Positions 393 through 61,042 of a stretch of 64,000 bases of DNA are shown here, piece after piece; within the stretch, counting starts at the first letter, position 1; every line of letters starts with the position of its first letter. The translations under genes were made by a program, and so were the position numbers. Location: assembly GCA_964016885.1 (NCBI GenBank), contig OZ024742.1, positions 357,554,001-357,618,000 of the forward strand, in the 5' to 3' direction. A model generated the notes under the pieces. It saw only the letters and a program-made list of their open reading frames with translations. It did not search any database and was not told where the DNA came from. The stretch is from Eledone cirrhosa (Eukaryota).

Positions 393-581
393 TGTAGATA
401 ACTATCAGGTACTGAGGCCAGACTGATAAGGTGACTAGTTCCTGCTACTACACTTTGATTTGGTTTGCTTTCTATGGCTGAATGCCCTACCAAACAGCAA
501 CCATTTTACAGCATGTACTGGGAGCATTTTCATAACTCAAACACCACCACCTGACAGGGAAAACTATGTACCTTTTAATAT

Positions 582-3320
582 GGCACCAGCACTAACCCCT
601 TAGAGGTTGAGCTGTATGCTTTTTGCTGTGGCACCAGAACTACCCCTTCAAGGTTGAGTTGCATGCTTTTTTTTGTGGCACCAGCACTACCCCCATCAAG
701 GTTGAGCTGCATGCTGTTTGTTGTGGCACCAGCACTACCCCCTTTACGGTTGAGGTGCATCCTTTTTGTTGTGACACCAGCACCCTTCAAGGTTGAGCTG
801 CATACTTTTTGTTGTGGCACCAGCACTACCCCCATCAAGGTTGAGCTGCATGCTGTTTGTTGTGGCAGCAGCACTACCCCTTTACGGTTGAGGTGCATCC
901 TTTTTGTTGTGGCACCAGCAATACCCCCTTCAATTTTGAGTTGTATGCTTTTTGTTGGTGCACCAGCACTACCTCCTTCAAGGTTGAGCTGAATGCTTTT
1001 TGTTGGTGCACCAGCAACACCCCCTTCAAGGTTGATCTGCATGCATTTTATTGGTGCACCAGCACTACCCCTTTCAAGGTTGAGCTGCATGCTTTTTGTT
1101 GGTGCCCCAGCACTATCCTTTTTAAGGTTGAGCTGTATGATTTTTGTTGGGGCACCAGCCCTACCCCCTTCAAGGTTGAGGTGCATGCTTTTTGTTGGTG
1201 CACCAGCACTACCCCATTCAAGGTTGAGCTGCATGCTTTTTGTTGGTACACCAGCACTACCCCCTTCAATGTTGAGCTGCATGCGTTTTGTTGGTGCACC
1301 AGCACTACACCCTTCAAGGTTGAGGTGCATGATATTTGTTGGTGCACCAGAACTACCTCCTTCAAGGTTGAGTTGTATGCTTTTTGTTGGTGCACCAGCA
1401 CTACCCACTTCAAGGTTGAGTTGTATGCTTTTTGTTGGTGCACCAGCACTACCCACTTCAAGGTTGAGTTGTATGCTTTTTGTTGGTGCACCAGCACTAG
1501 CCCCTTCAAGTTTGAGTTGTATGCTTTTTGTTGGTGCACCAGCACTACCTCCTTCAAGGTTGAGCTGCATGCTTTTTGTTGGTGCACCAGCACTACCCCA
1601 TTCAAGGTTAAGTTGTATGCTTTTTGCTGTGGCACCAGCACTACCTCCTTCAAGGTTGAGTTGTATGCTTTTTGTTGGGGCACCAGCACTGCCCCCTTCA
1701 AGGTTGAGTTGCATGCTTTTTTTGTTGCACCAGCACTACCCCCTTCAAGGTTGAGTTGTATGCTTTTTGTTGGTGCACCAGCACTATCCCATTACGGGTT
1801 GAGCTGCATGATTTTTGCTGTGGCACCAGCCCTACCCCCTTCAAGGTTGAGCTGCATGCGTTCTGTTGTGGCACCAGCACTACCCCCTTCAAGGTTGAGC
1901 TGCATGCTTTTTATTGTGGCACCATCACTACCCCTTGAAGGTTGAGTTGTATGCTTTTTGTTGGTGCCCAGCCCTATACCCTTACGGGTTGAGCTGTATG
2001 CTATTTGTTGTGGCACCAGCACTATCCCCTTCAAGGTTGAGTTGTATGCTTTTTGTTGGTGCACCAGCACTACCCCCTTCAAGGTTGAGCTGCAAGCCTT
2101 TTGTTGTGGCACCAGCACTACCCCCTTCAAGGTTGAGTTGTATGCTTTTTGTTGGTGCACCAACACTACCTCCTTCAAGGTTGAGCTGCATGCTTTTTGT
2201 TGGTGCACCAGCCCTATACCCTTACGGGTTGAGCTGCATGATTTTTGCTGTGGCACTAGCCCTACCCCCTTCAAGGTTGAGCTGCATGCTTTCTGTTGTG
2301 GCACCAGCACTACCCCCTTCAAGCTTGAGCTGCATGCCTTTTGTTGTGGCACCAGCACTACCCCCTTCAAGGTTGAGTTGTATGCTTTTTGTTGGTGCAC
2401 CAGCACTACCCACTTCAAGGTTGATCTGCATGCTTTTTGTTGGTGCACCAGCACTAACCCCTTCAAGGTTGAGCTGCATACTTTTTGTTGTGGCACCAGC
2501 ACTAACCCCTTCAAGGTTGAGCTGCATGCTTTTTGTTGTGGCACCAGCACTACCCCCTTCAAGGTTGAGTTGTATGCTTTTTGTTGGTGCACCAGCCCTA
2601 TCCCCTTCAAGGTTGAGTTGTATGCTTTTTGTTGGTGCACCAGCACTACCCCCTTCAAGGTTGAGTTGTATGCTTTTTATTGTGGCACCAGCACTACCCC
2701 CTTCAAGATTGAGCTGCATGCTTTTTGTTGGGGCACCAGCACTACCCCCTTCAAGGTTGAGTTGCATGCTTTTTGTTGGGGCACCAGCAATACCCCCTTC
2801 AAGTTTGAGCTGCATGCTTTTTGTTGGTGCACCAGCACTACCCCCTTCAAGTTTGAGTTGCATGCTTTTTGTTGGGGCACCAGCACTACCCCCTTCAAGG
2901 TTGAGCTGCATGCTTTTTGTTGGGGCACCAGCACTACCCCCTTCAAGGTTGAGTTGCATGCTTTTTGTTGGGGCACCAGCACTACCCCCTTCAAGATTGA
3001 GCTGCATGCTTTTTGTTGGGGCACCAGCACTACCCCCTTCAAGGTTGAGTTGCATGCTTTTTGTTGGGGCACCAGCAATACCCCCTTCAAGTTTGAGCTG
3101 CATGCTTTTTGTTGGTGCACCAGCACTACCCCCTTCAAGTTTGAGTTGCATGCTTTTTGTTGGGGCACCAGCACTACCCCCTTCAAGGTTGAGCTGCATG
3201 CTTTTTGTTGGGACACCAGCACTACCCCCTTCAAGTTTGAGCTGCATGCTTTCTGTTGGGGCACCAGCACTACCCCCTTCAACATTGAGTTGTATGCTTT
3301 TTGTTGGGGTACCAGCACAA
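582..3320. repeat. 48-bp minisatellite, about 57 copies (consensus ggcaccagcactacccccttcaaggttgagctgcatgctttttgttgt)
   Basis: Direct tandem periodicity. The 16-aa repeats in all ORF-track frames (e.g. MQLNLEGGSAGAPTKS) are a by-product. Confidence 0.97.
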
Positions 3321-6002
3321 TCTCATTACAACATTAAGGTACTCAGTGTTCTCGGTGTTACTAGGGAGGCATTGGTGGATCTTTTTGTCTAGGGAACAGA
3401 CAACACACTACTGGTTGGTTGCAGGTCATAGTGATTGTGAAGCAAGTGGTTGGTGTCTAACATGTTGTAAGGGTTCTAGATTTTCTTGATGGTCAAAAAT
3501 GGATTTTTGTATGGTGTTTCCTTGGTGGGGGCAATAACACATTCTTTGAATATAATCACAGTTAATTGAACTTTGTTCCACCAGTAATATTAATATTACA
3601 AGATTCCACTTGTAGGTGTACAGTTTATGTACAGCCCTCCACACACTTCCTCAGACGATTTCACCTGTAATCTTTCTTTAGACATAACATACGCATACAT
3701 ATGTGTGTGTTTATGTATGTGTGTATGTGTGTGTGTATGTATATGTGTGTATGTGTATGCATGTGTATGTGTGTATGCATGTGTGTGTGTGTATATAAGT
3801 GATGAATTCCACACTGTGAACTGACAAATAACTTGTCAGCCTGTAATAATTGTATGGACCAATGGCAGAGGCTCCATATTGTCACATGACCTAGTGTAAA
3901 TAGTAGTCAAAACTTATTTGAACAACATCCTAACAAATTAAACCTTTTAATACTAAACTACCTGAAACAACCCTGGGTCTATGGTGAAAAATGTTATATT
4001 CAAATGTTCCTCCTTCTATCATAATTTTATGTAAGAACTTTTGTTAAGATTATGGTAAATGGTAATGGTAGTTCCAACATATGATTAAATATATACATTT
4101 TAGTGATTTCAAATTAAATTGTCTTAAGTGTGAGTGTGTCTGTGAAACTTATACATACACACCAGGTCAGAACACAAAGGAACCAAACTCCCACTGTCTC
4201 TGTCTCCATCTCACCTGTACTCACCATCTCTCACTATTAAGAGCAAATGTTCCAAAAACCAAGTTAATCCCGTGAAAGTTAGTTATATTACTAAATCTCT
4301 CCAAATTCTTGGTTATATTCAAGATTATTTTAACTACATAGGTAGTGTCTGTCATTAGAAATATGGGAACAAATGTGTTTAAAAAGACACAATATATGTA
4401 TACACTCTTTCTAATGAATTAAAATACTGGCTAAACAAAATGTAATAGCTGGAAAGCATTTGAAACAAGACAGGGGCAGATTAAGTTATTTTAAGGACTG
4501 AAATACTTAGATGATGGTGCACTTTATTGTTTATTGTGTTTTATTATGTATGTGACCGACACTGACACCCCTTCAGTTCGTTGGGAAATTGTGGCGCAAA
4601 TATGTTGGGGACTGCTGATAGACAGGACTCATTTCTGCTCTCTCTGCAGTCTGAGTTCAAATTTTGCCAAGGCCAACTCTGCTTTTCATCCTTTCAAGGT
4701 TGATAAAATATGCTAATTCAGTAGAGGAGGTGATTCCTCCCTCTGTATCTCTTTCTCACTTCCTCTCTCTCCCCTCCTGGAAGAAATTGGCTGCATTCAG
4801 AGGTGGAAAGGGGATGGACTCTACCAAGTCAAAGGTGCCCGAGATATACCATATGTCACTATGGTACCCCTTCAACTTCACCAGAAGTTATGGGTTCAAA
4901 CATACATACTTATACTATTACTATGGCTAAATGTACTATAAGGAAGAATGAAATCATTACTGAATATAACTACAATTTTATATGGCTTAAGTCCTTTCAG
5001 CTGTTATTGACTGAAGTTGTGTTGAAGCAGTGTATCAGGTCTGTATGATATAGCAAGTTAATATAATGTACTAAGAGAAAGAATAGAGAAAGTCTAGGTG
5101 AATTGTGAATTGTTTGAATAAAATAAATGGTGTACAATTGAATGAAATATAAATAAAAATGGAAAGAATAGAAGCAAAGTAGCTCCATTCTTTCTTTTCA
5201 ATTATACACAGAGCTAGGAAATGAAAAACTTATTGGTTTTAATACATCACTTTTAAGATTAGCTGAGTGAGTGATATGACATAGAAGTGTAATATTATTG
5301 GCATTATTCATCTCTCACTTAATAATTTATAATATGACAGCTAAAATGCTTTTGTGGAACATTATTTGTGGAATTTTGAGGTATAGGCTGGGAAGTTAAG
5401 GAAGACAGTATTGAGAAAACAATGTCAATCGTGATTTGTAACTGTTGTTGGTACTTAATTAACCAGTGATGAAATGCAATAAAAATGTCCTGGCAAATCA
5501 TTGAGATGGGACATTACGAAGAGTCTAACAGCTGCTGGTTTTTAGGAAGCTTCTCAGGTGGCACAACATTTATTAAGTAGAACTCATGAATATAATCTGA
5601 AAATTGGTTTTTTTCACACAATGTCTTTACACTCAAATAATGCAAGACTGAAAAGAATGTAAAGGATTTGTGGATGTTACATTATTTTAAGTGTTAGTAT
5701 ATTTGCACGTAAATATGCTTGTATTGATATTAAGAATGTATGGAAAGTAGATAGTAACCTCTTAATGAGAAAGTATGCAAATAAATCTTGTTTTTCAGGC
5801 TTAGAGAATTAAAAATATCCTATTTTATAGTCATACACGTACACACATTATTCTTTGCACTGAAATAGTCACTTACTACTCTGGAATTTCCCTAATATGT
5901 AGTCAGATTATATATATGAACCTGATATAACTGTGTAATCTTGCCTCCTGGGTTTCGTTTTATTTACTCTATTAACCATATATATATATATATATATATA
6001 TA

Positions 6003-22072: not shown

Positions 22073-24574
<2,502 letters not shown>

Positions 24575-24575
<1 letters not shown>

Positions 24576-24950
24576 GCACGCAGATGATCTAACGCTCATA
24601 GCTGAATCAATGACCGAGCTAGAGAAGAAATTCCAAACATGGAAGCACGGCCTAGAATCAAAAGCCCTTAAAATTAACCTAGCTAAGACTAAAGTTCTAG
24701 TTTGTAGGAAAGAAAATAAGGCGGCGGTTCCTTCCGGGAAATGGCCATGCTCAGTGTGTAGAAAAGGCGTAGGTAGAAACTCGATTTTATGTCCCAAATG
24801 CAAAGTATGGATGCAATAAAGATCTAGTGGGATCACACGTAAGCTAACTAAGAACATAGATTTTACATGCGGCCGGTGCTCTGATGCAATAAGTAGCAGC
24901 AAGTGCCCACAAAATACTAGCTCCTTCAATTGCGCAAAGGGATCTATAGT
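24575..24950 (+). pseudogene. Inverted second RTE RT segment
   Basis: HADDLTLIAES...KINLAKTKVL; a diverged inverted homologue of 23150-23505. Confidence 0.8.
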
Positions 24951-25250
24951 GTGTCCGCATGTATCTATGCGTTTCTCAATATATTGTTTATAACTCCCTC
25001 TGGTCGAGTAATCTTTGAAGTGTAGTGACTGCTGGAAAGCTGCCATTACTCATACTTCTCACCTCCTTAACCACCTCTTCTACGGCCTCGATATAAATAC
25101 CCCCTCCGCCTCCGTGGTATTTTTTTCAGGGTTATAAGGGGCTTAGCTTTGTTTCTTGACCGTTGTATCACGTGACTGACTCCCTCTCCGCCTTTTGGGA
25201 TTATATCTCACATCTTATAGACATGTTCTTGAAGCTAGTAAAATGAGGTC

Positions 25251-30700: not shown

Positions 30701-31632
30701 CCTGCATAATGACAACAGTTCTTCCTTTGTCCGCTTCTTTAATTATAATGTCCGTATTGTTTTTTAGTTCATGGATAATCTCCCATTCCCTTCGACTCGT
30801 GTTGAGTTTGGGTTTAGGTTGCGGTAGTTCATGGTATCGGAAAGTAGCTATGTGGTCACAGAATTTTTCCAGAGCTCTGTTTCTACCTTTTGTTGGGTTG
30901 CTTTTATTCCGTACAATTGATTCGTCGTTATTCTCCTTGTCAAAGAATTCCTCTGAGAGACGTAATTTTCTACAGAAGTGTGAGATATCGTCATTTATCT
31001 CATTGGGGTTAGAGTATTGTGGTGTTAGTGTGAATTTCAGTCCTTTGGAGAGAATATTTACTTTTGGGGCTGAGAGGTTTTTATTTGAAAGGTTGATTAA
31101 TTCGGTTTTTCAAAATCGTTTTATGCCACCGGGTGTCGTGGGTCCTGTAGCCTTGGTCTAAAAAATGATTTTTCGGGAATGTTTTTTCAATGGTATTATT
31201 ATATCTAATGGTATTTCCCCTGTTGTTGTGTGGTCTTGTATAGATGTTTCGGACGTATTGAGGTTCAGTTTGTTGATAGTCCGGGTTGTAGATTTTGTTC
31301 CTTTGTGTGGGTTGGAAATTTATTATAATTAGTGACCAACCAATCAAATTACTTCTCGAAAAGCCTGGCATTTCGAGCCACTTTCTCCATATAAAACAAG
31401 TAACAATTCAGAGACCAACCAGATGTCAGAAAAACCACAGACCCTCTATCTCAACTCTACTTTTGAAAAGCAGAAGAGCTGCGAAACCGGTAAAGGAACC
31501 AAATAAATATATATATATTTTTTAAAATAAGACTCCAGTTGCATTTTCGATTTCATCTTTTTTTCTTTATACTTTCACTCGTGTAGGACACCTCGGTTAT
31601 GTTTCATTTTGTTAAAAAATCCCTCACTTTCT
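27745..31632 (-). mobile_element. Decayed Penelope-like element (RT + Zn-linker + GIY-YIG) with an inverted pseudo-LTR
   Basis: LSKGLKFT, RYLDDCL, FPFLDI, CGRSNCGTC, LLYAIKC..YIGQT (28868-29383). 27745-27987 is inverted at 31320-31570. Confidence 0.93.
27814..27853 (-). ncRNA. Minimal type I hammerhead (U3-A8) in a PLE pLTR; second copy at 31458-31497 (+)
   Basis: TTCTT-TTGAAAA-GCAG aagaa CTGC-GAAA-CCGG-TA-AAGGA, with a palindromic CCGG stem III. Confidence 0.8.
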
Positions 31633-32011: not shown

Positions 32012-32193
32012 CGAAGGAAATGTGGTAAAGAAACAGGTGGACCATAACGCACCAAAGTACTCAATGCTTGAGGTAGTAGAGTGGGTAATAGGAACCAGTA
32101 AGACCCCGACAGCTGAGCTCAAGCCGTTTCGACGGCTAATTCAGAATTAGCCGTCGAAACGGCTTGAGCTCAGCTGTCGGGGTCTTACTGGTT

Positions 32194-32286: not shown

Positions 32287-32312
32287 TTAGGTATATATAT
32301 ATATGTATATAT

Positions 32313-32421
<109 letters not shown>

Positions 32422-32443
32422 TATATAAATATATATATATATG

Positions 32444-32535
<92 letters not shown>

Positions 32536-32548
32536 TACATATATATAT

Positions 32549-33853
32549 ATCTTCATCAGGCAGTAACGGTCCACAGAATCAAAGGCCTTCCTAAAGTCAA
32601 TGAAAACCATGACCGCAGGAAGGCACTTTGCTCTAGCTCCCTCTAATATCCTCCTCAGCATCAGGATGTGACTGGTGGTTGATCTACCCTCTCTGAAAAC
32701 GTTCTGGTTGTCCCTGAGCTTCTTCTCCATCTCAGGCTGGATCCTGTTAAGAATCATCCTGTTGAGGGTCTCTGCCACAAGTGACGTCAGTGAGATCCCC
32801 CGGTAGTTGTTGGTGTCAGAGAGATCTCCCTTCTTTGGCACTGGGACGATGTTACTGATCCTCCACTGATTCGGGGCAACTCCTTTCTCTAGTGCCCCGT
32901 TACAGAACCCCAGGATGATATCATCAAAATCACACCTCTTCATCACCTCTGATGCCACTCCATCTTCTCCATGAGCCTTGCCCTCCTTGATCTTCTTCTT
33001 GGCTCTCTGAAGCTCCTCTCTGGTGAAGGGCTCTGTCTCAACATCCAGTTCCTCAAACAGCCGCCTGATCTCCCCAGTGCTCTGGGCTGTGGAGGGTGGC
33101 TCTCCTAGTAGGGTCATAAAATGGTCTAACCATTTCCTCTTCCTATCCTCGGGCCCCGTTCCCTGGATCTGACTCGAACACCTTTTCTTCCTCCCTGTGA
33201 TCTCGTTGATGATCATCCAGCTCTCCTTACATCCAGATCTGTCAACTGCTCTCTCCACACTTCTGATCTTCTCTATCAGTGCCTCCTCTCTGACCTCAGT
33301 GTAAGCGGTACAGAGCTCTTCCCTCATCACCTCCACAGTCTCCATCTTCTCCTCCGTAGGATCAGCATAGAATTGGTCCCTGGCAGCTTTCAGGTGTTCT
33401 CTGGCTGCACACACTTTTGGGTTTGCAGAGCTGACGTGCTTCCCTTTGTTCTTTTTCCTCGGCACCAGGGTTTCACTTGCTTTCGCCACTGCATTGGTGA
33501 AGTGCCCGTACCACCTCGTCACACTCTCCTCAGTCCATCCAATCTCTCTCTCCTCTGACTCTCCACACAGAGCACTAAAGCTGTATGGGAGCATCCCAAA
33601 AGTCAGCTCAAAAGTGACACAGAGGAGACTGAGGTTGGCTGGACATGCTCACCGACATCCAGAGTTGACATTGCACTCAGTGCTCCTTTGGGAGCCCCTA
33701 CATGGACACACTAGAAGAGGAAGACCAAGGTTAACATATGTTGATGCCCTAAGGACAGACACTGGTCTGTTGGAGATGCAGGATATGGCAGCGATAATGA
33801 GGGACAGAGACCGCTGGAGAGAACTCGTCCATGGATCTCGGGAATTTTACCCG

Positions 33854-41034: not shown

Positions 41035-41125
<91 letters not shown>

Positions 41126-41282
41126 AAAGAATAGAGGTGTAACACATAAGTTATTATATATTGGTAAACGGAATAGAAAATGCTGACAAATTGTTCACAG
41201 TTGAAAAATGGTTTAATTAGAAATACAATAGTATTAGTGATTGTATGGGTTAGTATTCAGTTGTGGTTTTAAGTTTTTAAGT

Positions 41283-41319
41283 TTTTACCGGTTGCGCATT
41301 TCTAAATGCTTTTCAAAAA
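41283..41319 (-). ncRNA. Minimal hammerhead-like motif with U3-A8 and GCAA in place of GAAA (copies 46145-46181, about 57626-57662)
   Basis: TTT-TTGAAAA-GCATT taga AATGC-GCAA-CCGG-TA-AAA; same layout as 27814-27853. Confidence 0.65.
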
Positions 41320-41672
41320 TAATTTTGAGATAGAGTGTCCGTGCTGTTTGCTCTGATCTGATTAGTTTTGGGAATTCTACCTGTTTTTATGTTAAAAAAG
41401 TGGCTCCAGCGTTATTTTTGTGTTGCAAAAATGCTTGTGGTCAAAACAATTTTGATTGGTCGGTAGAGGTCATGTGAATGTAAAAAGTTGATTTTGCGCC
41501 AAGACTGTTTTTATGTTAAAAAAGTGGCTCCAGCAAAAATTCTTGGTCAAAACAATTTTGATTGGTCGGTAGAGGTCATGTGGATAAAAAATTGGTTTTG
41601 CGCCAAGATTGAGAAATGACTCTTTCACAACAAATATGTGTGTGTGTGTATGTGTGTGTGTGTGTGTGTGTC

Positions 41673-41725
<53 letters not shown>

Positions 41726-41807
41726 AGTAGTAGTAGTAAGGTGTTCGATGCTGCGACAATGGCCAGCAGCGATGTGTGTCAAATGGCTATTAAGATAAGT
41801 GTGTGTT

Positions 41808-41854
<47 letters not shown>

Positions 41855-42359
41855 CAGAGTAATTCGATGGTCAGTAACAATGTGTCTGAAAGCAATGGGG
41901 GGTATTTTAGCATGTCAAAAGATATTTTCAGCTTTTGTCTTATACGGAGAAGTGCGTGTGTGTGTGTGTGTATAAGTCTCTTTGTATGTTGATGTACGCG
42001 TGTGTATGTGTTTGTGTATATATGTGTGTGGGGGGGGGGGGCAGTATTATTTTCCCCCTGGTAAAATGGTGTACATTATTCGATTTTTTCAGTAAAATCG
42101 GTTCTCTTAATAGAACATCAAAAATCTTAACAATAAAAGGTGTGAAATGATATTCACTATATATATATACACATACATATATTCACTACATATATATATA
42201 TATATATATATACATATATACATACATATATATGCACATATATTTCTTTGTATTGCACCATAGAGCATGTGTGTTTACGTGTGTCATTGTGTTTATATGT
42301 GGGTAGAGATGTGTGCTGATGTAGGTATGTATGTTGACGTGTGTATGTTGTGGGTTGTC

Positions 42360-44684
42360 TTAGGGAGAAGTGTTTAGACGGGGTCCGTATTTGTTAATGA
42401 AGTAAGATTCCTTGCTGAAGCGCTGGGTGTGGGTGGCATTATCTTTAAATTTGTAGAGGGGAAAGATTCTGAAGTTGGGATGATTTGGGGCGGCACAGGT
42501 ATCAATGTGTTCACTCAGTGGTATTTTCCTGTATTCCCGTATTTTAATTTGGGATCTATGGACAGTCATGCGTTGGCGGGGGCTGTTTTTGGTCTGGCCT
42601 ATGTATTGTTCTCGACAACCTGAACAAGTTAATACATATTTTAGATTTTCCGATGCACATGTGAAATTGTGTTTTACTATAAAACGTTGTCCATCTTTGA
42701 AATAGAATTCCGAACCCTCTATTAGGTTGATGCAAATGCCACAGTTGGGTCTATCGCATTTTTTTACTGTGGGTTTCGTTGTTGTGGTTGGCAGTACTTT
42801 GGCATGTGTTAAGATGTTTTTCATTGACTTGGATTGTCTTTTGCTCTTTATGATATCGTGTGTTCGTAGAATTTGGTTCATTCTATGGTCCTTTTTCAAT
42901 ACAGGGATGTTCTGGAGGATGGTGTCAAAGGCCTCATTGTTGAGGGGGTTGTGTGTGGAGATGTATGGAAGAGCTTTTAGTTTTGGTTGTTTTACTTTAG
43001 GGTGTCTAAGGTCCTTGGTACTGAGTTTTAGGGCACGTTGGATTCCATTGTCAATTAGTGATGCAGGGTAGTCCCTGCCTATGAGTGTGTCCTTTAGTTC
43101 TTGTAGCCGTAAGTAGCAGATGTTTTTATTGGAGACTATAGTACAGATTCTCTTGGCTAAGTTGTAGGGAATATTAATTTTAACGTGTCTAGGGTGGCAA
43201 GAGTTGAAGGGGAGATATTGCTTGGGGTCTGTGGGCTTGTAGTATATGTCTGTTTCTATTTTTTTGTTATGGATCTTAATGAGGATGTCGAGGAAGGGGA
43301 GTTGTTGATGGATGTATTCCATCGTGAAGTTAATATTTGTGTTGAGCCCATTTATAAGGGTGTGAAATTCTTTAAGTTTTTCGATGTTTTCGTGCCAAAG
43401 GATGAAGCAGTCATCTAGATATCGCTTCCAGTTCCTTTCAATGTGTAAGTGGAGGGTGTTTCCAAATTTGTTTAGGACTTTAGTGTAGAGGGTGATTTCC
43501 AGGTATCCCATGACTAGGTTGGCATAAGTAGGGGCTGTTTTCGTTCCCATAGCGGTCCCAGATTTCTGCCTGTAGGGTTTGTTATTGAAAACGAAGTAAT
43601 TGTTCTCCAAGATAAATTTGAGTCCCTCTATCACGAATTCTTTTTTGATGCGTTGTGGGAGTTCATTGTGGAAATTATCCAGCCAGAATTGGATAGCTTC
43701 TATTCCTAGGTTGTGGGGGATGTTGGAGTATAGGTTGACTACATCGAACGTCACTAGTAGGGTTTGTTCAGAAAGTGACATATTAGGGAGGTGATTGAGC
43801 ATATCTAGGTCGTCCCTTATATAGCTTTTGATGTGCTTGAGGAAGGGTTTGAGAAGGGTATCAATGAAGTTGCTAAGACGGTGCGTTTCGCAAGCGGGGC
43901 CTGCTATTATAGGTCTTAATTTGAGATCATTGGGTGAGGGGACATTGATGACTATGCCTGTGGCTTCCTTGCATGCCTTACTTATTGATTCGCTTTTATG
44001 TACTTTAGGGATACCGTAGAAAAGGCTGGATTTACTTGTGAAGTCTGTGATGAAGCTGAATTCCTTGTTAGTGAGTCCTTCTTTGTATTGGTTGATTAGA
44101 GTTTTTAGGTTTCTCATAATTTTCTGTTGATTGTAGTGTTCAGCCTTTTCGTAGTATGTTTCGTTTTCCAAAGTGGAGAGCGCTAAGTTGATATAGAATT
44201 CTGTCTCCATTAGGACTACTGTACTCCCTTTATCAGCCTCTTTAATTGTAATGGTTCTGTCGGTTTTTAATCTATTTAATTCTTCCCCTTCTTTCTTGTT
44301 GAGGTTTGGCTTGTGTTTTTGTCTGTGCAAGTGTTGGTAAGGGAAGTTTGTGATGTGTTCACAGAATTCGTCCAGGATTTTATTTCTACCTTTTGAAGGG
44401 GTGTAATTGCTTCTATTTCTGGCTAATGATTCATCCTCATTGTACTGGTCGAATAGTTGTTCACTAAGTCGTAACTTTCTACAGAAGTCTGTGATGTCTT
44501 CCTTCATTTCATAGTAGTTAGGACGTAGTGGGGTCGGTGTGAATTTAAGACCTTTGGAGAGTAAGTTGATAAGGTTGGGTGTTGGTTCTGCACTAGTAAG
44601 ATTGATAATTTTTATTACTATCGGTTTCTCCTCCCTGTCTTGTGTTATTTTGTTTGCCTGTATCTGTGTGCTGTGTCTAAAAAA
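42360..44684 (-). CDS. PLE ORF2: reverse transcriptase + Cys-rich linker + GIY-YIG endonuclease
   Basis: Uninterrupted 715 aa from the ATG at 44507. The frame stays open upstream through IINLTS..LLSKGLKFTPT to the slippery site. Motifs: IKEADKG, YGIPKVHK, LRPIIA, FDVVNLYSNI, GTAMG, RYLDD, LPFLD, CDRPNCGIC, LKYVLTC..YIGQT. Confidence 0.95.
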   Translation of the reverse strand, partial: FFRHSTQIQANKITQDREEKPIVIKIINLTSAEPTPNLINLLSKGLKFTPTPLRPNYYEMKEDITDFCRKLRLSEQLFDQYNEDESLARNRSNYTPSKGRNKILDEFCEHITNFPYQHLHRQKHKPNLNKKEGEELNRLKTDRTITIKEADKGSTVVLMETEFYINLALSTLENETYYEKAEHYNQQKIMRNLKTLINQYKEGLTNKEFSFITDFTSKSSLFYGIPKVHKSESISKACKEATGIVINVPSPNDLKLRPIIAGPACETHRLSNFIDTLLKPFLKHIKSYIRDDLDMLNHLPNMSLSEQTLLVTFDVVNLYSNIPHNLGIEAIQFWLDNFHNELPQRIKKEFVIEGLKFILENNYFVFNNKPYRQKSGTAMGTKTAPTYANLVMGYLEITLYTKVLNKFGNTLHLHIERNWKRYLDDCFILWHENIEKLKEFHTLINGLNTNINFTMEYIHQQLPFLDILIKIHNKKIETDIYYKPTDPKQYLPFNSCHPRHVKINIPYNLAKRICTIVSNKNICYLRLQELKDTLIGRDYPASLIDNGIQRALKLSTKDLRHPKVKQPKLKALPYISTHNPLNNEAFDTILQNIPVLKKDHRMNQILRTHDIIKSKRQSKSMKNILTHAKVLPTTTTKPTVKKCDRPNCGICINLIEGSEFYFKDGQRFIVKHNFTCASENLKYVLTCSGCREQYIGQTKNSPRQRMTVHRSQIKIREYRKIPLSEHIDTCAAPNHPNFRIFPLYKFKDNATHTQRFSKESYFINKYGPRLNTSP

Positions 44685-45955
44685 TGGTTGGGGTAGAGGG
44701 GTTGTCTGCTGATGTTAAGTGGTCTCCTGTGTTTGTTATATTCCTTGTTGTTGTAAAATGTGGTTCGGGTTGGTGGTTGTAGATTGAATGGGGTGTTCCT
44801 GTACTGCGAGTATGGGTGTGTGTTTCTATGTGCCATGTTGTATTGTGGTGTTATAAGTGGCCTACATTGTTCGTTGTATCGTGTGGTGTGGGTTTGTTGT
44901 GTATTGTGGAAGTGAGAGTTGAGAAAATGGTAATTACCTTGCTGTCCCCTTGAAGCGGGGAAGTTGTTGCATCTATCATGGCGGTGGTATCTTTTCCCTA
45001 TGTTTGACGATGAGGAATCCGCGTAGTAGTTGAGTGATTTGGTATGGTGTCTCCTTGAAGGGGGAAAGTTGTAAATGTCATTCTGGGGGAGATGATTTCT
45101 TGGGTTTTTGTTCCTTCTTATGGTAGCGAGGTTGGGAAGTTCATCTTCGGTGTGGTGCTTCCTTCTTCGTTTGTTTGAGGCTTGGGGGTTTGAGAAGTTG
45201 TTGTGCGGTTCAGTTATGGGTTTTCCTATTTTTATGAACGGGTTATTGGAGGTGTAATCCGTTTGAAAAGTCGATTCATAGTGTAGGAACCAAGCGGCAC
45301 TTTTTTCCCAGCGTTGAAGGGATTTCAGTTCTTCTCTGTTGCAGTCCCCTTTCCATAATTTGGAGATCTTCTCTACCTTGGGGCCTTCAGTTTTGTTGTT
45401 GATTTCCAGGAGGATCTCTTCATCGATGGTTTTGATTTTTTCCTCGTTTGTCTGGGACCTCAGTTTAAGAAGTTCAATTTCTGTCTTCATTTTTTCCAAT
45501 GCCATTCTTTCCCTAAGGTGTCTTTGAGGTCCGGGTTCATTTGGAATGGACTTTATTTGTAGTTTACGGGGGAGAGTTAGAGGGGTTGAGTTAAGCCATT
45601 TTTCATATATCTCTGCTTTGTTGTGATTTTGTATCATCTTCCAGAATGAGAACTTTCTGTCTCTGAGGGATTTGTTCCATTTTGGAATTGTTCGAATTTT
45701 CATTTTGTGTGAATCAATCTCACATGGTTCTTCGTTGGTTTTTCCTGGGTTGGTAGTAGTGAACATAGTTTGGATAGTATCGCAAAGGTTTTGGAGTTTG
45801 TCGCCGATTTCGGAGGGTTTGTATCCGGTGGCGGTTTCCTTATTTGTGGAGTCAAGTTTGTCGACCAGCAAAGATAGGTTGGTGTTGATTTTCTTGAGTT
45901 CCTGTAGGATCTCTTCATTTGAGTTGATGAGGGTTGTATCCGTTTTTGTTGGCAT
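44645..45955 (-). CDS. PLE ORF1, about 436 aa: coiled-coil N-half and a basic, N/H/R-rich, probably disordered C-half
   Basis: Uninterrupted ORF (ATG of MPTKTD at 45955) directly downstream of the pLTR. Heptad-like ILQELKKINTNLSLLVDKL and ALEKMKTEIELLKL. Confidence 0.8.
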   Translation of the reverse strand: MPTKTDTTLINSNEEILQELKKINTNLSLLVDKLDSTNKETATGYKPSEIGDKLQNLCDTIQTMFTTTNPGKTNEEPCEIDSHKMKIRTIPKWNKSLRDRKFSFWKMIQNHNKAEIYEKWLNSTPLTLPRKLQIKSIPNEPGPQRHLRERMALEKMKTEIELLKLRSQTNEEKIKTIDEEILLEINNKTEGPKVEKISKLWKGDCNREELKSLQRWEKSAAWFLHYESTFQTDYTSNNPFIKIGKPITEPHNNFSNPQASNKRRRKHHTEDELPNLATIRRNKNPRNHLPQNDIYNFPPSRRHHTKSLNYYADSSSSNIGKRYHRHDRCNNFPASRGQQGNYHFLNSHFHNTQQTHTTRYNEQCRPLITPQYNMAHRNTHPYSQYRNTPFNLQPPTRTTFYNNKEYNKHRRPLNISRQPLYPNHFLDTAHRYRQTK

Positions 45956-46498
45956 TTTCTGTATCTCGTGTGAGGATATGATAGTTAAAAGAATAGAGGT
46001 GTAACACACAAGTTATTATATATTGGTAAACGGAATAGAAAATGCTGACAAATTGTTCACAGTTGAAAAATGGTTTAATTAGGAATAAAATAGTATTAGT
46101 GATTGTATGGGTTAGTATTCAGTTGTGGTTTTAAGTTTTTAAGTTTTTACCGGTTGCGCATTTCTAAATGCTTTTCAAAAATAATTTTGAGATAGAGTGT
46201 CCGTGCTGTTTGCTCTGATCTGATTAGTTTTGGGAATTCTACCTGTTTTTATGTTAAAAAAGTGGCTCCAGCGTTATTTTTGTGTTGCAAAAATGCTTGT
46301 GGTCAAAACAATTTTGATTGGTCGGTAGAGGTCATGTGAATGTAAAAAGTTGATTTTGCGCCAAGACTGTTTTTATGTTAAAAAAGTGGCTCCAGCAAAA
46401 ATTCTTGGTCAAAACAATTTTGATTGGTCGGTAGAGGTCATGTGGATAAAACATTGGTTTTGCGCCAAGATTGAGAAATGACTCTTTCACAACAAATA

Positions 46499-46595
<97 letters not shown>

Positions 46596-46615
46596 TAGTA
46601 GTAGTAATGTGTTCG

Positions 46616-46872
<257 letters not shown>

Positions 46873-47374: not shown

Positions 47375-48605
47375 ACATGAGTAAAATTTCCTACCTGGGA
47401 GACTTAGCCATAAGCAATCAAGCACTATGCATGGCACTAACCGAAACGCACCTGACAAGCACTATAGCAGATGCAGAAATACATATACCGAAATATACTG
47501 TATTTCGTTCGGACAGGAATGAGAGAACTCATTGTGGGGTTGCTCTGTATATCCGTGAAGATGTCTCACCAATTGTACTGTTGACACATTCAAACTCAGT
47601 CTGTGGCACACTGATAATACATATGAAGCAACTACAAACAGTATTATGTGTCACATATAGGCCGCCCGATGCCCCCCAGTCATGAGGGTAAATTTGAGGA
47701 TAGCCTAAGTAGGATAGAAGAGGTCCTTGACAAACTGGAGCAGGGTCTCAACATCTTACTGCTGGGAGACTTCAACCTACCAAAGGTCAAATGGCCTGAG
47801 GGCCACCTCCTTCCTGGAATGACGTCAATAGAACAGAGACAGACGGAATCCCTGCTGGCCCTCACACACAGGCTGTTCATGGAGCAAGCAATACTCCTCC
47901 CAACAAGAGGCGAAAATGTCCTGGACCTCTGTTTTACAAACAACCAAGTGCTCATCCACAATGTAAAGGTGACACCAACAATTCTCTCGGATCATAACTT
48001 AGTAGAGCTAATGATATGTGGTCCAAGAGAACCAACAGAGACAAAACCACCAAGAAGCTCCGGGACGCTATCCAGCCTTAACTTCTACAAGGCTAACTGG
48101 AAAAAGATTAAGAGTGAAATCCGGAAGCAAACATGGAGTGAAAACACCGCCACACAACACACTAACACACAATTTCAACACTTCATGACAACGATATATG
48201 CAAAAAGTTTGTCCCGGAGAAAGAGGCAAACAGATACAAAAATCTTATTCCCAGAGATAGGAAAATCCTTATGAGACGTAGAACTAAACTCCCAAACCAG
48301 TTGAATAGTCAACAAAACAAAAACAAGAAGGAATCCTATTTGAAACGTGCACTACTTGACACCGAGATTGCACTCAAACTTTCACATGAGAATGAGAGGG
48401 CAAAGAAAGAGAACAGGGCCATAGAAAACATTAAAACAAACCCTAAGGCCTTCTTTAAATTTGCAAAAGAAACTGCTTCAGCACACTGCAAGATTGGGCC
48501 CCACTTCCACACGGACGGTTCATTAACCGAAAACCCCCAAGAGATATGTGAAATACTAAACGAACAGTACAAAAGTGTGTTCATATGTCCACTGAGGCAC
48601 ATGCA
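47375..48605 (+). pseudogene. CR1/L2-group LINE ORF2 5' part (APE endonuclease), frameshifted
   Basis: ALTETHL, RSDR..GVALYI, YRPP, LLGDFNLP, PTRGENVLDLCFTN, SDHNLV, IKTNPKAFFKF. Confidence 0.9.
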
Positions 48606-48611
48606 AATAAC

Positions 48612-49242
<631 letters not shown>

Positions 49243-59703: not shown

Positions 59704-59759
59704 TAAGTACACATTCATACATATATGTACACAGACGTACACTAGTATGTACCAGAGGA

Positions 59760-60800
59760 AAAGGCTGATCTTCAGGCATTTGCTGCCAGCTCAGCCAAAG
59801 ACATAGGCGGTGTTCCCCCAAAGGGTGCTCTACGCCTTGGTCAACCTGGTCCAAAACCCAGACTCAGGCTGTCTTTTTCGGACCCTGCTGAAGAAGGACC
59901 GCTCTACAAAATGTCATGGCTCCAAGCCAGAATACTTAAACCCATACTAGACACCTTGCCGGGACTCGTAAACAGCTCCGAGAAAGTGTTGGCGCGCCTG
60001 CATCAAATGGATCCCGACACCAGAAAGGCTCACATTTATGCCTTCAGCCTTGATGTGGTCGCTCATTACACCTCGGTCCCGGCGCTTGCGGCCTTTCATA
60101 TACTAATGGAACGCGTTCAATCTACCGACCTACACTGCTTTGGGTTCACCCCCACTGACAATCACCTGCTCCTATCCGTCATCGTTGACAACACTTATTT
60201 TGGTTTTCTCAACCAAACATACCGGCAAACTCAGGGCTGCCCATGGGCTCAAGCCTGTCGGGTGTGATAGCGCTCTCATACATGGACGGCCTCGAGCGCA
60301 AGGCACTCAACACCTGCCACCCCAGCGCCGTCGCTTTCTTCTCGAGGTACGTGTACGACATCCTCATCCTCACATCTTCTCAGGAGATGGCAAGCGGAAT
60401 TTATGAGACGTTCAACAACACGGAGGAGAATATTGATTTCAGTGTTGAACACCCCAACGACGACGGGTCCCTTGCCCCCCTCGACGTCCGAATCAACATC
60501 ACGGAGCAGGGAGGGATCCACACCAACTTTTAGCACAAGGCAGCCTACAGGGACTTGTTCGTCCACTACAAGTCTGCCCTCGCTAACAGTGCTAAAAGAG
60601 GGTACATCACGAACGAGATCACGCGAGTTAAAAACAGATGTAGCGATACCGTGAGTGGTGTCACCTATACCAAGCGGTTCCTAATGGTGCTGGAGACGAA
60701 TGGATACCCAGCCTCGCTTACAAACAGAGTAAGAGACACCAGACGCAAGAGGCAGAGAAACACCCAAGGCAAGTGCTTCCTTAAAATCCCGCACCTGGGT
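59760..60800 (+). pseudogene. GC-rich PLE reverse transcriptase fragment from a different lineage
   Basis: FSLDVVAHYTSVP, YRQTQG/PMGSSLSG, RYVYDI (mutated YVDD), LAPLDV, HYKSA. Frameshifted. Confidence 0.85.
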
Positions 60801-61042
60801 GTCATGAAAAAAGCACCCAGTTCACACTCTGATGTGGTCATGTAGGTGTCATGAAAAAAAGCACCCAGTCCACACTCTAATGTGGTCATGTAGGTCTTAT
60901 GACAAAAAGCATCCAGTCCACACTGTAAGTGGTTGTGTAGGTGACATGACAAAAAGCACCCAGTCCACACTGTAAAGTGGTTGTGTAGGTGACATGACAA
61001 AAAGCACCCAGCGGACATGCTAGCGTGGAACATGGACGTTAA
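60797..61042 (+). repeat. Tandem repeat of about 44-49 bp (x about 5) within an RTE 3'UTR fragment ending in (GAT)n
   Basis: catga.aaaaagcacccagtccacact..gtggt..tgtaggt units, followed by catgctagcgtggaa..ggacgttaa. Confidence 0.8.

Follow-up and report, generated by a model that had tools for sequence, protein, structure and literature searches.

Penelope-like elements (PLEs) are described in two layouts: those that carry an endonuclease (EN+ PLEs) have a single open reading frame (ORF), whereas EN-less PLEs have two (PMC6431247, available sections). Canonical EN+ elements are also described as single-ORF in the available part of PMC8557442, in line with the remark, made in a first reading of the present DNA from its letters alone (the sequence-only reading), that classical PLEs usually have one ORF. 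This DNA is a 64,000-nucleotide (nt) stretch of Eledone cirrhosa contig OZ024742.1 (assembly GCA_964016885.1, positions 357,554,001 to 357,618,000), called the window in its full length. It contains a PLE that is an EN+ retrotransposon by its predicted PLE-type reverse transcriptase (RT) and C-terminal GIY-YIG domain, and in which an upstream ORF1 and the RT frame are very probably joined by a programmed -1 ribosomal frameshift at U UUU UUA, judging from this copy and its relatives.

Clade names follow Arkhipova (PMC8557442, PMC3846280). The CX2-5CxxC linker between RT and EN is shared with Nematis and Naiad, and Neptune is paraphyletic, according to the available text of PMC8557442. The legend of Fig. 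1 in that paper and its preprint, the part available, states that a frameshift with a pseudoknot can set ORF1 apart, or often does so; the legend names no clade and, taken with the abstract, apparently refers to the EN-less Athena type. The available portions of PMC3846280, PMC5408684, and PMC4700185 mention no programmed frameshift in PLEs. A literature search returned no description of a frameshifted EN+ PLE; Arkhipova 2006/2017, the 2007 Athena paper, and Repbase entries lay outside that search and may note one.

The ORF1/ORF2 junction and its relatives

On the minus strand, ORF1 runs from the ATG at 45955 to the TAA at 44647-44645 (436 amino acids, aa), and a stop-free frame of 784 codons (44714-42360) lies -1 relative to it. 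This second frame (ORF2) holds, in order, IINL (44609), LSKGLKF (44561), the first ATG (44507), the RT motif YLDD (43421), the Cys linker CDRPNCGIC (42758), and the YIG of GIY-YIG (42605). Pfam matches to ORF2 are RVT_1 at E=2.9e-7, above the cut-off, and GIY-YIG at E=1.5e-4 (22.4 bits vs a cut-off of 22.6); no PDB sequence match was found for ORF2. The sequence-only reading had placed the heptamer T TTT TTA (44684-44678) in -1 phase and the following frame open into IINL, LSKGLKF, and the RT. Both points are borne out: counted from ATG 45955 the ORF1 codons read CAT TTT TTA GAC, which gives the heptamer, where the ORFs overlap, the X XXY YYZ phase. The doubt expressed there about the first ATG of ORF2 as a start is also justified, since 44507 is downstream of both conserved motifs. 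Ribosomes would shift -1 at U UUU UUA within the overlap, and a single mRNA would yield ORF1 protein in abundance and, less often, an ORF1-RT-EN fusion of a predicted 1198 aa, in gag/pol style; the transframe peptide proposed earlier, in its form NHFLRHSTQ, is the product deduced for a shift after Leu.

The two-frame layout is the state of the family. A junction search gave 1646 candidates, of which 40 were scored and 30, the window's own copy included, were fetched by likeness; all 30 are two-frame, and in 19 the -1 frame is open to the end of the locus. To offset this likeness-based choice, 30 further copies were picked by the ORF1 core; 29 reach the junction and 28 of these are two-frame, the single fused copy having a private 1-nt insertion and being also broken upstream. 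The exact six-T motif has 952 genomic matches (control 12) and the five-T form 24 (control 0), while the seven-T form, which would fuse the frames, is at background level with 21 (control 16). Fusion in most copies, which the sequence-only reading had named as the outcome that would speak against frameshifting, is thus not what the genome holds.

The first 30 motif matches are all PLE junctions, from three families, A, B, and C. A pattern restricted to the RT motif (1634 genomic matches, control 0) added families D and E, with the junctions CAT TTT TTA ACG and CCT TTT TTA GGG. Among the 33 RT-motif places examined, ORF1 and ORF2 are fully open in four D copies and one E copy (ORF1 of 449 or 421 aa; 770 aa from the heptamer), and the remaining copies are truncated or have private indels. 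With a sixth family represented by one decayed copy that carries the run out of frame, five families here have TTTTTT(A/G) in -1 phase. In family E (L173-L188) the length of a C-run about 30 nt past the heptamer ranges from 7 to over 15 nt among copies, and several copies with long RT frames differ in it by multiples of three.

The second, diverged PLE that had been noticed in the window with the same motif and a broken frame is a decayed copy of family B. AAYCATTTTTTAGAC occurs twice in the window (31156-31170 and 44675-44689), where 0.04 occurrences are expected and 0 of 100 shuffles reach two. Most of the family-B ORF1 is replaced by an inverted terminal piece at 31315-31526, and the frame break is a 1-nt deletion just upstream of 31103 when set against an intact family-B copy. 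The surrounding sequence is indeed dissimilar, the flanks of the two families being 41% and 50% identical (ungapped) vs 67% for the motif core. In the top family-B loci the heptamer is kept with the RT motifs in the -1 frame in 20 of 20.

Metagenome contigs were scanned with the RT N-terminus, so that loci were selected by RT similarity only; this gave 79 loci (from the best 80 of 108), of which 75 could be anchored. TTTTTT(A/G) lies 96-243 nt upstream of the LSKGLKF anchor in phase 0 in 24 of the 75, against 0.77 per phase in shuffles and an in-phase run in 15 of 365 RT-internal control windows. Out-of-phase runs occur in three: a broken copy of an in-phase family, a run inside the RT frame, and a locus outside the clade described below. 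In all 24 in-phase loci the -1 frame is open from the heptamer on, that is, upstream of the ORF1 stop. The metagenome junctions are preceded by ORFs as long as 550 aa, and the ORF1 profile matches 10 of 12 endonuclease-type upstream ORFs at E<1e-12 and another at 3e-8, the last being a fragment with no match. RT-alignment scans of genome contigs and viral contigs found no relative.

A quick RT tree, limited to 43 rows with at least 330 open codons from unnamed PLEs and no reference Neptune sequence, contains one clade of 18 rows (SH-like approximate likelihood ratio test, SH-aLRT, 99), of which 16 have the heptamer; the run is missing from loci with one long ORF, none of which belongs to this clade, and a Cys linker like CDRPNCGIC also occurs in clade members. 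The check on run, phase, and heptamer that the sequence-only reading had proposed therefore finds them kept in copies, in five families here, and in distant PLE families. Most likely these are a two-ORF clade of EN+, Neptune-like PLEs defined by the -1 junction.

Readings of the junction

Five families here and 23 loci provide 28 non-redundant junctions (L198, a sister of L191, was dropped and out-of-phase loci were excluded). Every one of the 28 has a run of exactly six T, and conservation is at the nucleotide level: always TTT, then TTA or TTG, with T before; A precedes the run in 22 and G follows it in 22. No shared AUG precedes the conserved RT N-terminal motifs, an in-frame AUG being found ahead of them in only 4 of 28. 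Protein data come from the best 150 ORF1 homologs, of which 89 have at least 300 aa; the protein set partly coincides with the DNA set, since some proteins stem from families also represented among the loci. None exceeds 706 aa, and no fused ORF1 form turned up in a search over 787-2245 aa, which is weak evidence. FL occurs within the last 50 residues in 70 of the 89, compared with 6 and 5 in two upstream windows, and the residue before it is nearly always H, S, P, N, R, Y, or D, for each of which a codon ending in U exists. Because codon phase is strict and the run of six U fixed, the shift is taken to be ribosomal, and a -1 shift would account together for the phase, the six T, and the AG and AUG that are not shared.

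Several observations weigh against such a shift. AG directly follows the run in 21 of 28 junctions. The usual stimulator, a hairpin or pseudoknot 5-9 nt downstream of the heptamer, was not found in conserved form in the 28. Two clade members lack the canonical heptamer, L248, where the end of an ORF1 homolog carries G TAT TTT C, and L237, which looks decayed. YF stands in place of FL in 3 of the 89 homologs, the other 16 without FL being 4 with FF and 12 with none.

The absence of conserved structure would suit slippage of RNA polymerase II on T6, which requires none and, by adding one U, would place ORF1 and ORF2 in frame in a fraction of transcripts, giving the same fusion. Polymerase slippage is indifferent to codon phase, yet the run starts at the third codon base in 24 of the 27 metagenome loci that carry it. 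Six T, the length in every junction, is short for polymerase slippage, and such transcripts would retrotranspose as seven-T copies, which do not exceed control level; this explanation is very unlikely. The sequence-only reading had offered TTTTTTAG as a 3' splice acceptor, with removal of an intron joining an upstream exon to ORF2. The frequent AG favours this, and unspliced genomic copies are no objection, since PLEs retain introns (PMC8557442, available part). However, AG is absent in 7 of 28 junctions, including that of the intact family D (TTTTTTAAC) and TTTTTTGTG, TTTTTTGTA, TTTTTTATA, and TTTTTTATG. An acceptor would give no reason for the run to stay at six T in a single codon phase of the preceding ORF, or for ORF1 to remain open across the 'intron', and among the contig joints listed, which are from DNA-like contigs, none ends at the AG after the heptamer; splicing is scarcely credible.

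Separate translation of ORF2, by reinitiation or a non-AUG start after the ORF1 stop, would make FL and its tail a conserved motif of the ORF1 protein, as the often fixed place of the stop, the uninterrupted ten codons past FL in 71 homologs, and a frequent Gly at codon 5 (29 of 71) might suggest. The conservation is nevertheless one of nucleotides, the -1 frame is open ahead of the ORF1 stop in the 24 in-phase loci, and there is no shared start, leaving this account only a very slight chance. It is almost certainly wrong that an accidental 1-nt deletion split a single-ORF element, which then spread as a non-autonomous family. Homopolymer runs mutate easily and five- and seven-T copies exist, but the cross-family data contradict this account: five families here and distant PLE families share the break while both their ORFs are intact, and none of the top 150 homologs is fused. 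Programmed -1 frameshifting is thus retained as the reading of the junction.

In P0038, P0059, P0149, and L248 (about 755-760; G TAT TTT CGA), Tyr-Phe replaces Phe-Leu with the same 12- or 14-codon tail; a non-canonical slip site beside the CGA codon is possible in these members.

The ORF1 protein and its stop codon

ORF1 has no Pfam match, and its model none by Foldseek at E<=0.001 against PDB folds. A profile search gives 956 homolog clusters at 50% identity, the only named homolog being from Octopus bimaculoides (65% identity over 22% of the query). The model, based on six sequences, consists entirely of helices over aa 7-233, with disorder beyond (mean predicted local distance difference test, pLDDT, 57; 60-97 over aa 91-230; <50 beyond aa 237), and profile positions 8-70 weakly match coiled-coil proteins. 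A P-x-x-L-x-I-K loop looks like one in the N-terminal extensions of single-ORF PLEs, with an HH-suite probability <1% equalled by reversed controls; an Atlas search returned one unnamed cluster at 0.75, a lead only. The layout, the helical domain, and the basic disordered tail suggest that ORF1 may be a structural or RNA-binding (or RNA-chaperone) partner.

The 70 nt downstream of the heptamer fold no better than shuffles on average (mean z -0.49; 4 of 28 below -2), and scores are 8.3 vs 7.4 shuffled for simple hairpins and 12.9 vs 13.5 shuffled for pseudoknots. Folding downstream in the window copy is -3.6 kcal/mol or weaker, and hairpins are found in a few junctions (L245, L231, family E). 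GG at +7/+8 (in 16 and 17 of 28) and low U over 30 nt are what is conserved in this stretch.

The position of the ORF1 stop is also conserved. It lies exactly 30 nt past the heptamer (codon 13) in 23 of 71 ORF1 homologs and never closer: stops are found at 0 of 710 codon places over codons 3-12 and 24 of 348 over codons 14-23; under a composition-matched null ten codons stay stop-free with probability 0.45-0.65 per lineage. Codon 13 is the stop in 10 of 28 DNA junctions even though anything from 96 to 135 nt separates heptamer and RT motif in these. Neither this spacing nor the missing structure had been remarked on in the sequence-only reading. In eukaryotes, collided ribosomes are spaced about 10 codons apart, so a trailing ribosome would be on the slippery codons when the leader is at a codon-13 stop. 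A non-shifted ribosome terminating ten codons on might thereby stall the next one with its tRNAs on the slippery codons, a speculative step that would replace the pseudoknot. A structure-free -1 frameshift in a widespread EN+ PLE clade, with the ribosome terminating at the ORF1 stop, 30 nt or one ribosome length past the heptamer, as its roadblock, is a tentative and rather doubtful proposal. Tails are longer in 48 of 71 homologs and shorter in 4 of 28 DNA junctions; why longer tails are common and shorter ones rare is left unexplained by it. In addition, 21 of 26 twelve-codon cases (median identity 27%) belong to one 31-row clade, with 10 changes on a FastTree tree, and because the cases clump, much of the pile-up at codon 13 is inheritance under constraint, not independent origin. 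Alternatively, the spacing may reflect a functional ORF1 tail or a protein-binding stretch of RNA.

If the roadblock is real, frameshift rate and RT output would rise with ribosome load and slow termination, and the spacing gives a sharp test of whether a terminating ribosome alone stimulates programmed frameshifting; a literature search found no description of a stop-codon roadblock as such a stimulator. Among longer-tailed members (families B and E, L195, P0002, P0007) codon 13 reads TGG (Trp), a single change away from a stop, as if a codon-13 stop had recently been lost. A periodic tail length in multiples of 11-12 codons was considered and rejected, the bumps at 23-25 and 32-33 being too weak.

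Element parts, window features, and known systems

Coordinates are collected in Table 1. The pseudo-long terminal repeats (pseudo-LTRs) and tandem or inverted insertion that are a hallmark of EN+ PLEs are present, as the 642-nt repeat, the inverted arms at the family-B copy, and inverted family-D pairs. No hammerhead ribozyme is among 16 Rfam matches at E<=1, which are driven by microsatellites only, and a simple hammerhead core pattern has no match in 41100-42360; both methods can miss minimal hammerheads. In runs X1 and X2 the terminal repeat (45966-46388) has 100 to 500 times the contig depth of the 5' end of ORF1, and coding depth drops from 3' to 5'; this pattern is one of many solo or short terminal pieces and 5'-truncated copies.

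Table 1. Parts of the two-frame element and the related family-B site, in window coordinates
Feature	Position	Strand	Remarks
ORF1, 436 aa	44645..45955	-	Coiled-coil-like helices at the N-terminus; a conserved domain, also helical, at ~aa 85-235; C-terminal half disordered and of low complexity
ORF2 (-1 frame), 774 aa counted from heptamer	42360..44684	-	From motif positions and Pfam
Putative slippery heptamer T TTT TTA (U UUU UUA), -1 phase	44678..44684	-	Kept in 5 families here and 24/75 metagenome PLE loci
Spacer from heptamer to ORF1 stop, 30 nt	44648..44677	-	Unstructured, U-poor, 10 codons in both frames
ORF1 stop TAA, codon 13 from heptamer TTT	44645..44647	-	Same place in 23/71 ORF1 homologs and 10/28 DNA junctions
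5' terminal repeat (pseudo-LTR)	45976..46617	-	Adjoins (TA)n tract; 97.4% identity over 642 nt to 41115-41749
3' terminal repeat (pseudo-LTR)	41115..41749	-	Followed by (TA)n
Same heptamer, decayed family-B copy	31159..31165	-	ORF2 pieces 31103-28877

Elsewhere in the window are a long tandem array of a 45-nt unit with several frames open on both strands (575-3392), an almost perfect palindrome (32094-32184, about 90 nt) that is flanked by (TA)n tracts and whose arm sequence recurs near 49.5-49.9 kb, and other retroelement fragments, labelled by eye (23514-25049, 32287-33648, 47627-48747, 59746-60845): pieces of RT or endonuclease of RTE-like and CR1/L2-like kinds and, near 60 kb, another PLE-like RT.

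In the EN-less PLEs L261 (945-2471), L266 (740-2257), and L256 the RT frame ends 584-589 aa past the anchor. L261 and L266, which lie outside the clade, have T TTT TTA after a 505-aa ORF1 unrelated to that of the window, with a stop 4 codons on, and L256 has A AAA AAC directly before the stop. The C-terminal part of the 505-aa ORF1 resembles an SGNH/GDSL esterase by eye and weakly matches NXPE4_C (E=0.04).

A -1 junction of this kind would recast a large Penelope group as two-ORF, gag/pol-like elements with an ORF1 family that Pfam does not cover, whose RT ORFs probably have wrong starts in annotations or are marked there as broken. It would also supply dozens of natural, independently diverged -1 sites that lack RNA structure in animal-type cells.

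The closest described elements are the Neptune-type EN+ PLEs, which likewise have an RT, a Cys-rich linker (C-x4-C-x2-C), a C-terminal GIY-YIG domain, terminal repeats, and copies beside (TA)n; the linker pattern resembles, by eye, the Neptune rows of supplementary Fig. S2 of PMC8557442, the part available. They differ in being single-ORF, as given in the abstract of that paper, where the present element has a separate ORF1 and a -1 junction, and its RT forms a clade apart from single-long-ORF loci in the tree, which includes no reference Neptune sequence. In Athena/Terminon (and Coprina-like) PLEs an ORF1 with a coiled coil precedes the RT, a layout that the helical ORF1 here, with its coiled-coil-like N-terminus, may share; in contrast, they are EN-less and telomeric, whereas this element has GIY-YIG, hundreds of dispersed copies on many contigs, and no conserved pseudoknot.

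Outside the PLEs, the gag-pol heptamer of human immunodeficiency virus type 1 (HIV-1) is the same U UUU UUA, and a structural ORF is paired there with a rarer enzyme fusion, as is proposed here. Unlike the present junctions, where no structure is conserved, HIV-1 has a downstream RNA structure, and the element here is non-LTR-like and lacks protease and integrase. The HIV-1 site depends on tRNA-Leu(UUA) (PMC13712778, available part). In severe acute respiratory syndrome coronavirus 2 (SARS-CoV-2) the location of the stop in the 0 frame affects -1 frameshifting, a precedent that stands beside ribosome queues at stop codons (available parts of PMC8168617 and PMC7544508, respectively). In SARS-CoV-2 the stop comes 5 codons downstream, and the proposal is that it allows a pseudoknot to refold (PMC8168617, available part), whereas here the distance is 10 codons and structure is absent, which leaves the stop as candidate roadblock.
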